Assembly: GCA_038890745.1 (NCBI GenBank)
Contig: JAWAFD010000004.1
Span: 32,001-96,000 of the forward strand
Reading direction: 5' to 3'
DNA from: Candidatus Anstonellales archaeon
Lineage (GTDB): Archaea > Micrarchaeota > Micrarchaeia > Anstonellales > J096
Length of the DNA stretch: 64,000 nt
Shown: positions 21,565 through 26,814 of the stretch, piece by piece
Layout of the letters: each line of letters starts with the position of its first letter
Position numbering within the stretch: the first letter of the stretch is position 1
The notes under the pieces: model-generated
What the model was told of the DNA's origin: nothing
Database searches by the model: none
Seen by the model: only the letters and a program-made list of their open reading frames with translations
Translations under genes and position numbers: made by a program

Positions 21565-24500
21565 TTGTTTATGGTGATGGAAATGGCAGAAGAAAAAAGT
21601 TTTGTGGATAGGCTTAAAGAAGATAGAGGGGCATTGGCGCTGGCGCTTTTAGCGCTTCTTTTAATTATATTCGGTGTTTTTGCTGTTCTTGGAGGAGCCG
21701 GCGTAGTTACCATGAGCCCGCCAACAAACCTGCAGGCAACAGTAATCTATCCTAATGTCAAACTTACCTGGGACCACTCGGTTGATTATCCAGATCCTTG
21801 CATAGGCTATAATGTATATTGGAGTACAACCCGTGGACAATTAGGGATTTTGCAGAATGCAGAGCCGATTGCGGATACTAAATATACTATTAAAAATGTA
21901 AAACCAGGAACTTATTATGCAACTGCTAGATGTGTTGATAATGCAGGAAATGAGGATGGTAATCTTGAACAGACCGAGGTTAAGGTTGAACTTCAGCCCC
22001 CGTCAGGTCTTTCAATAGTAATAAATGATGGGGCAGAATACACGAACAAAAGAGATGTTACGCTTGCTCTTTCAGCAACAAATGCCGAAGAATGCACGAA
22101 TGCAAATGAAAATATGGATTGGAGCCCGTGGGGTCCGTATACGGTAGAAAAGGAATGGAAGCTTACAGAGAACGCAGGAGGATGCGAAGAGAAAACAGTT
22201 TACTACAAATGCAGAAACGCTGGTGGAGAATCTTCTCCTGTTTCTGACACAATAATTCTTGATACCCTTCCGCCTTCAGTTTCATTCAACGTTCTTTCTG
22301 CAAAGGATAACACACTAACCATACAGATATTTGCGCAGGATGACTGCGTTCGAGGTGTAGATTGTTATGTTTTTGCAGGTAATCAGCAGATTGGCTCCAT
22401 CCAAAATCTTGCTGGGCAGGCTGAGAGAACATATGAGGTTCCGTATGGAACATATCTATTAGCTGTTGCCTGTACTGATGGTGCAGGAAACTCTGGTTCT
22501 GCTGCACTTGAAGTAAATGTTAAGCAACCCGAGAATGCAACAAACAAAACAGAGATATCCATAAAAATAAATAATGATGCTGCTACAACAACCTCTCTTG
22601 ATGTAACCCTAAACCTTTATTGCAGAATAAACGGGGAAACTCCAGATGCTGTTTACTACAGCAGCGCTGAGATGGGTGAGGTTGGGCCTGAAAGCTACAC
22701 AACATCAAGAAGCTGGGAGCTTGATAATAAAGCCCCAGAGCACACTAGAACTTACACAGTTTGTTATAGGTGCGAAAAGGACGATGTTACGGCAAGGGCA
22801 TGCGATTCCATAAGGTATGTTGTTGAAGAAGAAGGTGGAGGAGGCGGAGGTGGCGGAGGTGGCGGTGGCGATGGACAGGTTCCGCCAAAAAACCTTAAAG
22901 CAGAAATAATTGGATACAGAACCCCTATTGGTACCGGATGGCACTTACCGGTGCTAATACCAGATACTGAAGTTACAAAGGGGAGTGGAGAGACTGGAGG
23001 AGTTTACCTGAGCCTCTCTTCAAGCGGTGCAACTGAGTGCAAGGTTTGGAATGAGAAAATAGAAGGCGTAGATACAGGTGATGATGAAGAGAGCGATGTT
23101 GAATGGAGTTCAGACCTTGTAAATAATCCTAGGTATCCTTGGAAGCTTATTCCTTCTATGATAGTGCAGGTTGAACCAGGGCCAGGAGGGGATGAGTTTA
23201 GACCTAAGGCATTTATAATTATTGTTGGGGATGGAAACAGAACAATAAATTATAAATGCAAAAATAATGCAGGTACAACAGGACCGATTAAGGATAGTAT
23301 ATGGTATGATGCAACAAAACCAAGCTCTGTTGTAAGTTTGAGCGGGGAATATAGAACAATGCTTGGTGAGGGAGATATTGGTTTACCAATTATAAACATA
23401 AAGCTTACATGGGAGCCTTCTGTAGATAACTCTTGGAACTGGGAAGGATATACGCACAAAGGAATACAGCTTTACTCTGTTTGCAGAGCATACACCCTAC
23501 AGAACGACCCAACAAAGTCAAAGCACGACTTTGGATGCAAAGACTACACTCCGGCAGAGATCGGATGCGAGGAGGAAAATGGCTATTTTGCGCTTGAGTG
23601 TGCTCTTACTGACTTTGAACTTCCATCCGACCTACTCAGTCAGGGCGGAAAGATGTGCTATGATGTTAGTGCTTGGGACTATGTTGGATGGCAGAGCAGT
23701 GCTGAACGTGTTTGCGTGGATGTTCCACCATCAGGGCCGATAGATAAAGTTCCAGAAATAATATGGGTTGCAATATATGAAGGAGTAGGTGGGATAGGCG
23801 AAGGCGGAGGAGAGGAACTTCAAGCAAAGGAAAGCACTAGTAAAGTTGAAAAGATAGTAGGTAGCGTAAGCAGTCAAAACCCAACATCAGTTATTCTACT
23901 TGCGCAGCCTGCATATGAAGGAGGTGTACCTCTCAGCCCACCACCGGGAGAGAGCGGGGATATGTACACAAGAATTGCAAATGTTCGTGTACGGGTGATG
24001 GCAGTAAATGCAGAGAAGTGCATGCTTGGGAATGATGGGCCTGTAAAAGGTCAGCCAGTATGGAGCGGAACCTGGAGTGACTATAACGGAGACCCAACAA
24101 CATATACATGGACATTAAATGATAAAGAGGGAAGAAGAACAGTATTCGTTAAATGCAAAAATAACTTCGGCGAGTCAGCCATAGCTAGCGATAGTATAAT
24201 CTACGACCACACGCCGCCCGAAGTTGTTGGTACTGATTGGAAGGCGAATTACATAGAAACATGCGAGAAGAACTGGATATATGTTGCATGGAGCGGTGTA
24301 TTCAATGATGCGATTTCAGGTATAAAACAATATACTGTTAGAGAATATACGCGATATCTAATTGGCGGAGGAGGAAAAGGAGGGCCAGCGTATAACTGGA
24401 CAGAGACAGGAAACTGGACAACTCAAGATACATTCTTGTACGACTACAACTTTGTAAAGGATACTACGTACAAATATACAATAACTGCATGCGACAATGC

Positions 24501-24579
24501 AGGCAACTGCAATAACGTTGGTGTTACCACGGATCCGGTTACACCAACAAAAGACCCGTACAACGTTCCGTGTGAGTAA
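21565..24579 (+). CDS. Large Cys-rich surface protein with FN3/Ig-like repeats and N-terminal membrane anchor
   Basis: N-terminal TM helix, FN3 motif PPTNL...LTWD...YNVY, repeated INDG...VTL...W.L...KTVY.KC.N modules, poly-Gly linker; start may be ATG at 21571-21583. Confidence 0.8.
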   Translation: MFMVMEMAEEKSFVDRLKEDRGALALALLALLLIIFGVFAVLGGAGVVTMSPPTNLQATVIYPNVKLTWDHSVDYPDPCIGYNVYWSTTRGQLGILQNAEPIADTKYTIKNVKPGTYYATARCVDNAGNEDGNLEQTEVKVELQPPSGLSIVINDGAEYTNKRDVTLALSATNAEECTNANENMDWSPWGPYTVEKEWKLTENAGGCEEKTVYYKCRNAGGESSPVSDTIILDTLPPSVSFNVLSAKDNTLTIQIFAQDDCVRGVDCYVFAGNQQIGSIQNLAGQAERTYEVPYGTYLLAVACTDGAGNSGSAALEVNVKQPENATNKTEISIKINNDAATTTSLDVTLNLYCRINGETPDAVYYSSAEMGEVGPESYTTSRSWELDNKAPEHTRTYTVCYRCEKDDVTARACDSIRYVVEEEGGGGGGGGGGGGDGQVPPKNLKAEIIGYRTPIGTGWHLPVLIPDTEVTKGSGETGGVYLSLSSSGATECKVWNEKIEGVDTGDDEESDVEWSSDLVNNPRYPWKLIPSMIVQVEPGPGGDEFRPKAFIIIVGDGNRTINYKCKNNAGTTGPIKDSIWYDATKPSSVVSLSGEYRTMLGEGDIGLPIINIKLTWEPSVDNSWNWEGYTHKGIQLYSVCRAYTLQNDPTKSKHDFGCKDYTPAEIGCEEENGYFALECALTDFELPSDLLSQGGKMCYDVSAWDYVGWQSSAERVCVDVPPSGPIDKVPEIIWVAIYEGVGGIGEGGGEELQAKESTSKVEKIVGSVSSQNPTSVILLAQPAYEGGVPLSPPPGESGDMYTRIANVRVRVMAVNAEKCMLGNDGPVKGQPVWSGTWSDYNGDPTTYTWTLNDKEGRRTVFVKCKNNFGESAIASDSIIYDHTPPEVVGTDWKANYIETCEKNWIYVAWSGVFNDAISGIKQYTVREYTRYLIGGGGKGGPAYNWTETGNWTTQDTFLYDYNFVKDTTYKYTITACDNAGNCNNVGVTTDPVTPTKDPYNVPCE

Positions 24580-25298: not shown

Positions 25299-26078
25299 TC
25301 ACCTTTTTCCGCCCCTTTTTCTTTCTTTTGTTTTTTTGGGTTTTATTATTTTTGGGGAAATTCTTTTAATGCTTTCTCCCGCTTCAGCCGACCCCATTCT
25401 TTCTTCAACATGTGGCTTTCTTTCCTCCTGCTCTCTTTTCTTTTTCATTTCCTCAATCTCAATCTGCATCCTGTTTAGCCTTGCTTCAATATCGTTTATC
25501 TTATTTCCGAAATTTGAGATCATCATCGTAAGCCGTTCTATTATTCTTGTTTCCTCCTTCTCAAACTCCTCCTCTCTCTCCATCGCATGCTTTGCTACCT
25601 CGACCTTGCTTAGCATAGTGCTTACAAGCTCTTTGTAATCACTTATGCCCGGAAGAATGATGTCCGATTCCCCAACATTGCTTCCGGCAGTCTCTATTCT
25701 AAGCGTTGCAAGCCCTAAAAGCTTTTCCAATGGGCTTCTTTCTATATTTACATTTTGCATTTTTTCATATGGTACAACATATGTTTCAGTTCTTATAACC
25801 CCCTTCCTTATCCTTATTTCTGTTTTGTCTAATTTATACCTAAATGCTTTATACACAAGCTCTATCCATGCGAAATAGGGAAGCGCAATGAGCAAAAGTA
25901 GGATGAAGAGGACAACAGGTCCGATGCTTGAGTCAAAACCCAGAAAGTTTATATTGAACCTTACTATTGCAAAACTTAGGATGATCCATATCACAAGGAG
26001 TAATAGTATTGCATTGAGCGACCACAGGAACTTTACTTTTCCATCAAGATGAACCCATTCTCCGTTTTCTTCATTCAT
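25299..26078 (-). CDS. Membrane protein with bacterial-type PH (bPH_2/YdbS-like) domain and coiled-coil tail
   Basis: Two TM helices, then IRKGVI...VPYEKMQNV...LLGLATLRIETAG; start set at ATG 26078 because the longer ORF runs into tRNA-Trp. Confidence 0.8.
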   Translation of the reverse strand: MNEENGEWVHLDGKVKFLWSLNAILLLLVIWIILSFAIVRFNINFLGFDSSIGPVVLFILLLLIALPYFAWIELVYKAFRYKLDKTEIRIRKGVIRTETYVVPYEKMQNVNIERSPLEKLLGLATLRIETAGSNVGESDIILPGISDYKELVSTMLSKVEVAKHAMEREEEFEKEETRIIERLTMMISNFGNKINDIEARLNRMQIEIEEMKKKREQEERKPHVEERMGSAEAGESIKRISPKIIKPKKTKERKRGGKR

Positions 26079-26137
26079 GATAGTTGTTTGTATTTTATTG
26101 TTTAAAAATGTTTGGGGCTGCTGGGATTTCCACCAGA

Positions 26138-26482
26138 CCAGGGGGTACTTTAACTTATTCTCAGACCCCCTGATGCGGTGAAACAACCCGGAGGGCTTCG
26201 GTGCGACCCAACCCTCCTAAACTTTTGGGTCGCACTTGTTTCACCGCATCACGCTTCCACCCCCTATCGTATTAGGGGACCAGAGGGGAGGTCAGCTTAT
26301 TAGATGACCCCCCTAGCTCCAACCCCCCTATCTTATACGAGCAAGGGTTAGCCAAGGGGGGACTTAAGCATATTCTTATTCCCCCCTCACGCTTCCACCC
26401 CCCTATTTTATACGAGCAAGGGTTAGTCAATATAGGGGGTAGTAGAGTAAGGGGGTCTGCGATAAGCAATAGTACCCCCTAG
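26138..26482. repeat. Cluster of four ~50-nt GC-hairpin repeat units (three on +, one on -) plus a 34-nt direct repeat, inside the tRNA-Trp T-loop intron
   Basis: Units start near 26138, 26280, 26352 (+) and 26482 (-); 26322-26355 vs 26397-26430 match at 32/34. Confidence 0.85.
26171..26251 (+). mobile_element. 81-bp MITE-like element, copy 2 (inside tRNA-Trp intron)
   Basis: Perfect 16-bp TIR TGATGCGGTGAAACAA/TTGTTTCACCGCATCA; inner 11-bp inverted repeat; 80/81 identical to 21306-21386; mobility is inferred. Confidence 0.6.
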
Positions 26483-26814
26483 TCTAACGGAGGATACATG
26501 GAACCTAGGGGGAAACTTCCCCCTGGGTTTGGTTTTGAACCCAGATATGCAGGTTTCTTCAACCATCCTCCCCTCAGGTTAAGGGAAGGGGTAGGAGATT
26601 AGAAGGAAATGGGGGAACCGTAGGTTCCCCTGGTTCCTCTCCTGGAGCCTGCCGTGTTGCCTGGTTGCACCACAGCCCCAACGCTTTTATTTCTATTCAG
26701 TATTTATTTAAATGCTTTTTGTTTTGTGTTTTTTGGGGGAGTTTTGCTATTCTTATTTTCCGCCTAAAAAGCAACGCATTTAAAACAATATGCTCAAATC
26801 AACGCGGTGGTTGG

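Follow-up and report, generated by a model that had tools for sequence, protein, structure and literature searches.

The stretch of DNA analysed here, referred to as the window, covers 64,000 nt (positions 32001-96000 of contig C4) of the genome of a tiny hot-spring archaeon, G000, which is 93.8% complete and consists of 0.99 Mb in five contigs (C1 to C5). On the minus strand, at window positions 26679-26113, lies a tRNA-Trp(CCA) gene of 567 nt that is interrupted by an 87-nt intron at position 37/38 and by a BHB intron of 407 nt at position 59/60. Exon 1 (tRNA positions 1-37, 38 nt; 26642-26679), which is single copy in the genome, is followed on the same strand by the 37/38 intron (26555-26641), exon 2 (positions 38-59, 21 nt; 26534-26554), the 59/60 intron (26127-26533) and exon 3 (positions 60-73, 14 nt; 26113-26126), which has no encoded CCA tail. 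ARAGORN does not call a tRNA-Trp in the raw unspliced window, and the in-silico removal of the 87-nt and 407-nt introns leaves a 73-nt tRNA that it calls tRNA-Trp(cca), which bears out the claim of a first-pass annotation that 567 nt of gene are spent on a 73-nt product. The canonical BHB that this annotation placed at 59/60 around 26533-26127 could likewise be read base by base on the minus strand, with CTGGG (26544-26540), TTCA (26539-26536) and AA^A before CCAAACC on the 5' side, and GGTCTGG (26139-26133), TGGA (26132-26129) and AA^T before CCCAG (26125-26121) on the 3' side. It is a strict 3-4-3 motif with 4/4 central pairs (one of them G-U), an outer helix of 5 bp and an inner helix of at least 3 bp, while the BHB of the 37/38 intron is of the relaxed type with 3/4 central pairs. 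An AT-rich, TATA-like stretch read from the sequence some 25-33 nt upstream of the gene (26701-26712, minus strand) is presumably a putative archaeal TATA box. The gene for a bPH_2 membrane protein downstream (25299-26078, minus strand) also adjoins tRNA-Trp in the congener G002 and in the metagenomic locus L024 and serves as a synteny marker. Elsewhere in the window, positions 21565-24579 encode a secreted protein of 1004 aa that contains a run of glycines and repeats of extracellular modules.

This appears to be the only tRNA-Trp gene, since exon searches and a relaxed anticodon scan found no second copy in the 93.8% complete G000. One of the 11 motif candidates from the scan was real; the other 10, and the relaxed ARAGORN calls at C3:127382 and C1:282677, are not tRNA-like. 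The genome also holds what is needed for splicing: a 375-aa protein matches the epsilon2 EndA of the ARMAN-2 type (4fz2) over its full length (E 2e-88), and RtcB is encoded as well (E 5e-175). According to the available part of the source, a substrate with a 59/60 intron of 13 nt is cleaved in vitro by the ARMAN-2 enzyme (PMC3239211). By its BHB shape, the tRNA restored on its removal and the presence of EndA and RtcB genes, the 407-nt insert is an archaeal BHB tRNA intron, and the host EndA and RtcB would be expected to splice it. A second, 147-aa protein with a weak match to the EndA catalytic domain was seen at C1:152348-152599 (L022).

The 407-nt intron is built from a small set of modules, in the order A, L, linker, R1, linker, R2 and R3 with a nested T element, all given here on the minus strand. 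Module A (26489-26533) is the 5' end of the intron and carries hairpin HA (26527-26504), the further hairpin that had been noted within the intron, and is common to six other T-loop introns. L (26432-26485) is an antisense copy of module R, and three sense copies follow: R1 (26350-26406), a variant of R that is also found in the Gly(CCC) intron and in five arrays; R2 (26279-26331), whose nearest relatives are in the Thr(CGT) and Ser(CGA) introns; and R3 (26135-26267), the 5' part of which resembles family-B introns in antisense and the 3' part the trailers of Arg(CCT) and Leu(TAG). The four related hairpin units described earlier are thus one antisense and three sense copies of a single module, diverging from each other by 15-30%, and the direct repeat reported at 75-nt spacing is present and measures 48 nt at 85%. 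In a standard family-A intron, a linker joins hairpin HA to a single R, which is followed by the BHB end. Six-frame translation of the intron gave short frames only, none of them credible and none encoding a nuclease, in agreement with the earlier reading that there is no credible open reading frame, and the homing-endonuclease BHB intron was rejected as a class for want of a nuclease frame. An Rfam search with the intron returned nothing at gathering score and 27 weak matches at E<=10, with no ribozyme among them. The minimum-energy fold predicted for the intron has L paired with R3 and sequestering the BHB's 3' half. Imposing the BHB on this fold carries a penalty of 6.7, 5.5 and 5.6 kcal/mol at 37, 65 and 75 C, larger than for any other of the 24 T-loop introns compared (others 0.9-6.5). 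This is a relative caveat only, since nearly all 24 have their BHB disfavoured by the model.

The T element (26171-26251, 81 bp) has two inner hairpins and is bounded by a perfect 16-bp terminal inverted repeat, and to this extent the first-pass description of it as a terminal-inverted-repeat element stands. It does not behave as a free MITE in this genome, because all 14 full copies (a 15th copy is partial) lie at one site of R, sometimes doubled and once flipped, so that the test of site dispersion failed and the class was rejected. The flanks of the 14 full copies show no consistent target duplication, and none of the five stretches that match the T pattern in the genome contigs was read as transposase-bearing. 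A T-element fragment within a perfect 16-bp hairpin is also seen at a gene start at C2:135085-135180 (L126). That gene we take, from how it reads, to be like the tRNA methyltransferase Trm56.

The earlier note was right that the intron accumulates repeats, as its module anatomy confirms, and that a repeat array sits within a BHB intron of an essential tRNA, but it missed that the array is the expanded form of a 131-145-nt intron family common to six other tRNAs and that the modules form a genome-wide family. Iterated BLAST of G000 with the interior of the Trp gene (both introns and exon 2) gave 28 loci, and 22 of them lie within 250 nt of a tRNA T-arm, in zones that make up about 3% of the genome; the remainder are three contig ends, one orphan tRNA-Ser 3' half and two T fragments elsewhere. 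When sliding 25-mers of the Trp intron were compared with the other 27 module loci, the best donors changed along its length, from family-A introns (intron positions 1-37) to trailer and array copies without mismatches (49-97), R1 variants (133-181), the Thr(CGT) and Ser(CGA) introns (193-253), family-B introns in antisense (265-361) and the Arg(CCT) and Leu(TAG) trailers (349-397). Positions 49-97, which belong to L, are identical to the Leu(GAG) trailer, to the array upstream of Leu(CAG) and to a C3 contig end, and matches at the module junctions are poor, with 5-10 mismatches. These donor switches make the intron a mosaic and not a simple tandem expansion.

The tRNA census of G000 comprises 43 genes (46 rows less two spurious ones and a duplicated 3' end; where ARAGORN mislabels genes with several introns, the isotype names are our own reading), and 25 of these genes have a 59/60 intron. 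Fourteen of the introns are short (32-51 nt), seven belong to family A, which comprises six introns of 131-145 nt and the 407-nt Trp intron, and four belong to family B (169-253 nt), with module R in the opposite orientation; Leu(CAA) has one more 59/60 intron, outside the 25 counted by the census scan. Hairpins of the short type are found at 37/38 as well as at 59/60, in one case, Ile(GAT) of G001, within a single gene. Anticodon-loop introns of 125-240 nt that derive from another tandem hairpin family were seen at C2:248976-249323 and C1:313720-313900 and at a further locus, L056. The place of the 87-nt 37/38 intron of the Trp gene is taken by unrelated introns in G002 and L024, and its 5' hairpin recurs adjoining duplicated tRNA-Ser(TGA) 3' halves at C3:77017 and C2:227690. 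These 3' halves begin at about position 39 and are repeated at C2:227690-227874 and C3:77017-77275 with the hairpin in antisense; the orphan half on C2 lies 21 kb from any tRNA and differs in its variable arm.

Modules are also found outside introns. Module-bearing trailers follow 14 tRNA genes of G000, with modules starting at the tRNA 3' ends in both orientations, and by our own reading the trailer start lies no more than about 2 nt from N73 in 12 of the 14. Three of them carry a duplicate of their own tRNA 3' end (24, 25 and 45 bp), and the idea that all trailers are att-type duplications was dropped since this holds for only those 3 of 14. The clearest single event is seen at C4:96622 (C4:96600-96740, L127), where a protein gene has a hairpin insert of 96 bp at its stop codon. 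The insert lies between 18-bp direct repeats, has an empty site in both G001 and G002 and contains a module also present in the Thr(GGT) trailer; at random positions, duplications of at least 14 bp were found in 18 of 3000 cases. Another hairpin module, at C5:13019, has a 16-bp duplication. The region around it (C5:13000-22000, L124) contains an array of convergent gene pairs that are paralogous, nearly identical in promoters and N-termini and divergent in C-termini, together with hairpin modules and an open reading frame that we take to be RelE-like. Target duplications across sites range from 16 to 45 bp and were found at three of the 14 trailers and two non-tRNA sites and not at the Trp intron, and the A-type 5' motif, with 20 occurrences, has a duplication at three. 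Since duplications are seen at only 3 of 14 trailers and 3 of 20 A-type motifs, one insertion mechanism does not cover all sites.

Comparison with relatives points to turnover. The Trp intron matches 5 of the 176 genomes of the order at E<=0.001, namely G000, both congeners (82% and 88% complete) and two genomes of another family. In one of the latter, G155, the Trp gene is followed by the HA module and its 3' end is partly duplicated; the copy in G170 was set aside as evidence of transfer, since it is the sole match in that genome, stands at a short contig's end and may be mis-binned. The Trp T-loop intron is absent from all 11 genomes outside the genus, among the 12 of 18 loci listed. In G002 the Trp ortholog has a 145-nt family-A intron at 59/60 and an antisense R trailer. 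A metagenome scan added two further orthologs: L023 is near-identical to G002 in its flank and first intron and has a T-like insert in its family-A intron before the contig ends, and in L024 the intron is of the short type (50 nt), with a family-A copy in antisense following N73. From the tRNAs matched in Rfam searches (30 of 36 matches fetched for G002 and 23 of 23 for G001), the presence or identity of the T-loop intron differs among G000, G001 and G002 for Trp, Thr(CGT), Gly(CCC), Arg(TCT), Leu(TAG) and Ser(GCT). For Thr(CGT), introns of family A, family B and the short type stand behind the same C59 in the three genomes; the intron-less orthologs in other genera have A59, and none with C59 was seen among them. 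The Val genes keep T59/C60 with or without introns, while Gly(CCC), with A59 and a family-A intron in G000 and T59 in both sisters, is a counter-case to precise insertion. The Arg(GCG) trailer of G002 (L036) contains duplicated, non-functional 3' ends with short 59/60 introns that the real gene does not have.

Several readings other than the accumulation of mobile or recombining modules have to be weighed. That the array is an assembly artefact, a chimeric path through common repeats, might be suspected because contigs of G000 break inside such arrays and because no public contig, among those from the hot-spring runs, spans the 407-nt intron. However, exact identity between the Trp gene and any other locus extends over 93 nt at most, each of the gene's 477 91-mers occurs once in the genome, and the 15-30% divergence of the units also speaks against it. 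Both flanks of the locus are covered in four hot-spring runs of one study, which may include the source sample, and the locus-specific junction piece 26239-26335 is found without differences in run X1, at a depth of 47.9 versus 65.6 for the flanks, and again in X2, both possibly source samples; module depth in X1 rises to 1700, as expected for a multicopy repeat. We therefore give an artefact hardly any credence. A functional role for the excised circle, which the first-pass annotation had suggested, be it that of a modification guide, a regulator or a scaffold, is very unlikely too. The annotation's other suggestion, that the circle is a mobility intermediate, may hold. Excised archaeal tRNA introns circularise, and the 37/38 intron of tRNA-Trp in Haloferax volcanii is described as a C/D guide in the part of PMC3326292 available. 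The Trp intron also has a very stable predicted fold (-215 kcal/mol versus -150 +/- 6 in 60 dinucleotide shuffles, z -10.9), and its transcribed strand folds better than the complement (-199). This stability is largely trivial, because L is an inverted copy of R, and the modules lie in both orientations, with the antisense strand folding as well or better in 6 of 10 other long introns. Neither the sequence nor the length of the intron is conserved within the genus, box C is absent (0 RTGATGA, though there are two CTGA), and there is no Rfam match at gathering score, on which grounds a box C/D guide was rejected as a class. A replicating RNA of the viroid or retrozyme kind, autonomous or helper-dependent, whose intron circles are copied while tRNA ends prime or receive the copies to give tandem and antisense arrays, is unlikely, if slightly less so. 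The size and rod-like fold of the Trp intron would suit it, as would tandem units of 73-82 nt, both polarities and the start of 12 of 14 trailers close to N73 although the acceptor ends of tRNAs share little sequence. Against it, no Rfam ribozyme family was matched (for lack of a known self-cleaving ribozyme the viroid-like class was rejected), RVT_1 was not found in the genus, viral contigs were without a match, and the tandem units are sub-modules and not whole introns. The apparent CCA register of the trailer starts, which had pointed to tRNA-primed reverse transcription, is weakened as evidence, being equally explained by T59 plus the start of a family-B intron (TAAGCC), as in Gly(CCC) of G001.

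The modules could instead be non-autonomous targets of an integrase or casposase supplied by a virus, a plasmid or the host, as mini-elements placed at T-arms or gene ends with target duplication, of which those in the T-loop survive as introns. This reading is doubtful but stronger than the three above. The duplicated tRNA 3' ends of 24, 25 and 45 bp and the 16-18-bp duplications at non-tRNA sites fit it, and so does the HA module behind tRNA-Trp in another family. Casposons are reported to insert into the 3' regions of tRNA genes and into the 3' end of a protein gene, often in tandem, and to leave duplications of about 15 bp; their targeting is described as guided by the T-loop, and one casposase accepts both single-stranded DNA and single-stranded RNA (PMC9939771, available part). 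A mobile-element model of tRNA disruption is also on record (PMC3293823, available part). Yet the duplications vary in length (16-45 bp), most modules have no terminal inverted repeats, the modules occupy dozens of distinct targets, and no mobilising enzyme turned up among the families searched. Tyrosine integrase PF00589 was found in 0 of 19 genomes of the family, not even as an Xer-like protein, and RVT_1 in 3 of 19, none of them in the genus. Searches for transposase families (PF01609, PF01797 and PF07282) gave DDE_Tnp_1 in 4 and Y1 in 1 of the 19, again with none in the genus. The TnpB of G002 and the reverse transcriptase loci of the family were rejected as the source of the modules since they have no sequence in common with them. 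Deletion-bearing remnants of a TnpB element (IS200/IS605-type) adjoin tRNA trailer arrays in G002 (L030, L054, L119). Cas1 is present in 6 of the 19 genomes, with the G000 copy linked to CRISPR and to neighbours of the size of cas4 and cas2; none was found in G001 or G002, and no solo Cas1 was found in the genus. The CRISPR-Cas locus of G000, with 60 repeats, lies at C3:20600-35600 (L148). Its 59 spacers do not match the modules, and viral contigs gave 0 matches for the T and HA patterns.

We consider it probable that the Trp locus holds a real BHB intron in a single tRNA-Trp gene, presumably spliced, that serves as a landing pad for small non-coding hairpin cassettes present throughout the genus. 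Modules are shared among tRNA loci, are assembled into mosaics, turn over between sister genomes, lie in both orientations and in one case form a clean insertion with a duplication. The cassettes are best read as selfish or neutral, having piled up in the parts of the pre-tRNA that are spliced out or trimmed, by insertion and inter-locus recombination. The epsilon2 EndA would cut both bulges and RtcB would join the exons, and since these enzymes remove everything between the BHB arms, the content of the intron should be nearly neutral; 3' trailers, removed by 3' processing, would be nearly neutral likewise. The Trp site may have started as a standard family-A intron of about 140 nt and have reached 407 nt through several events in which parts of other tRNA-linked arrays were copied in both orientations, among them the L-linker-R1 block, R2 and an antisense family-B piece with T. 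Such copying could proceed by insertion and by microhomology or inter-repeat recombination, with cassettes moved by host repair and recombination or by an enzyme provided in trans. A duplicated T-arm could by itself give rise to a BHB, given that TTCGAA, the T-loop sequence, is self-complementary and that a copy of GGTTCGAA plus two bases forms the end of several short introns; introns may have originated in this way.

The ends of the cassettes give hints about the mobilising step. Target duplications and inversions favour events at the level of DNA, and the ends at the RNA-processing sites 37/38, 59/60 and N73 favour an RNA-guided step and hint that excised-intron RNA, or a single-stranded copy of it, takes part; selection accounts for the ends at 37/38 and 59/60 and not for the precise starts at N73. 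For this step we hold DNA template switching or recombination to be the leading candidate, just short of an even chance, RNA-templated capture to be a distinctly weaker one, an integrase- or casposase-like enzyme acting in trans to be weaker again, and anything else to be quite improbable. A more far-reaching possibility, which we put forward tentatively and would not expect to hold, is a class of enzyme-free mobile elements living in the processed-away parts of pre-tRNA. Excised intron RNA or a single-stranded copy would be joined at 37/38, 59/60 or N73 and fixed in DNA, the self-complementarity of the T-loop would provide a BHB in either orientation, and EndA and RtcB would act as the excision system. 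If this were true, at least four such events would be stacked in the 407-nt Trp intron, and the family would be a still active source of new tRNA introns in archaea.

In its available part, a 2014 review calls the mechanism of tRNA intron transposition unknown (PMC4090602), and a 2026 preprint, to the extent available, identified no general route by which introns are gained in Asgard archaea (10.64898/2026.10.13.758758). In the genus studied here, intron families turn over between sister genomes, and since donors, recipients, empty sites, both orientations and non-intron copies are all visible, routes of gain become testable, so that the Trp intron and its family show in concrete terms how tRNA introns of archaea can be acquired and enlarged. 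A practical marker is that a non-coding tRNA intron can reach about 400 nt; standard tRNA finders miss introns of this length, and such genomes will thus seem to be without essential tRNAs. The Trp intron is extreme in its length, and the most plausible reading is that selfish or neutral hairpin cassettes have piled up within this intron of an essential gene. The accessible part of the 2014 review gives lengths of 11-129 nt for archaeal tRNA introns (PMC4090602), about a third of the present length at most, although we do not claim that this intron is the longest known. Our literature search, conducted mostly outside the subscription journals, returned no paper that deals with the module family or with non-coding tRNA introns of archaea that are filled with repeats or longer than 130 nt.

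Among known systems, the 59/60 introns of ARMAN-2 (Ca. Micrarchaeum) share the site, the strict 3-4-3 BHB, the epsilon2 type of EndA and the multi-intron tRNA, but the 59/60 intron tested there has 13 nt, while the one described here has 407 nt and is built of dispersed repeats (PMC3239211, as far as available). The euryarchaeal tRNA-Trp C/D guide intron is also long and in tRNA-Trp, with circularisation to be expected in both cases, but in the available account (PMC3326292) it lies at 37/38, is conserved and has C/D boxes, whereas the present intron lies at 59/60, is species-specific and is without box C. The T element is like MITEs (PMC11602168, available part) in being small, non-coding, multicopy and hairpin-rich with 16-bp terminal inverted repeats, and unlike them in its one fixed site in R, the lack of a consistent duplication, the absence of DDE_Tnp_1 and Y1 from the genus and its array in an essential RNA gene. 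With casposons and tRNA-targeted integrative elements, as far as the available parts of PMC9939771 and PMC3293823 describe them, the cassettes have in common insertion at tRNA 3' and protein-gene 3' ends, target duplication at some sites and tandem accretion; unlike casposons, they are units of 50-150 bp without an encoded enzyme, with variable duplications, many targets and T-loop insertion rescued by splicing. The casposon arrangement of a solo cas1 and polB between terminal inverted repeats is absent, as the modules have no coding content and the sole Cas1 of G000 lies beside a CRISPR array. A tRNA island of the tyrosine-integrase type is echoed by the att-like duplications at some loci, with PF00589 found in 0 of 19 genomes. 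REP/BIME mosaics are arrays of direct and inverted units, and the hairpin-rich mosaic arrays of direct and inverted units found here resemble them. Another counterpart is the set of transposed introns of Thermoproteales (Fujishima et al. 2010, as cited in the available parts of PMC4090602, PMC4033280 and 10.64898/2026.10.13.758758), whose mechanism is given there as unknown. As in those families, with near-identical introns in different tRNA isotypes and positions, families A, B and short are shared across 7, 4 and 14 of 43 genes and differ between close relatives. Unlike them, the introns described here are long, modular, nested and present in both orientations, and their modules extend into 3' trailers and to the end of a protein gene.
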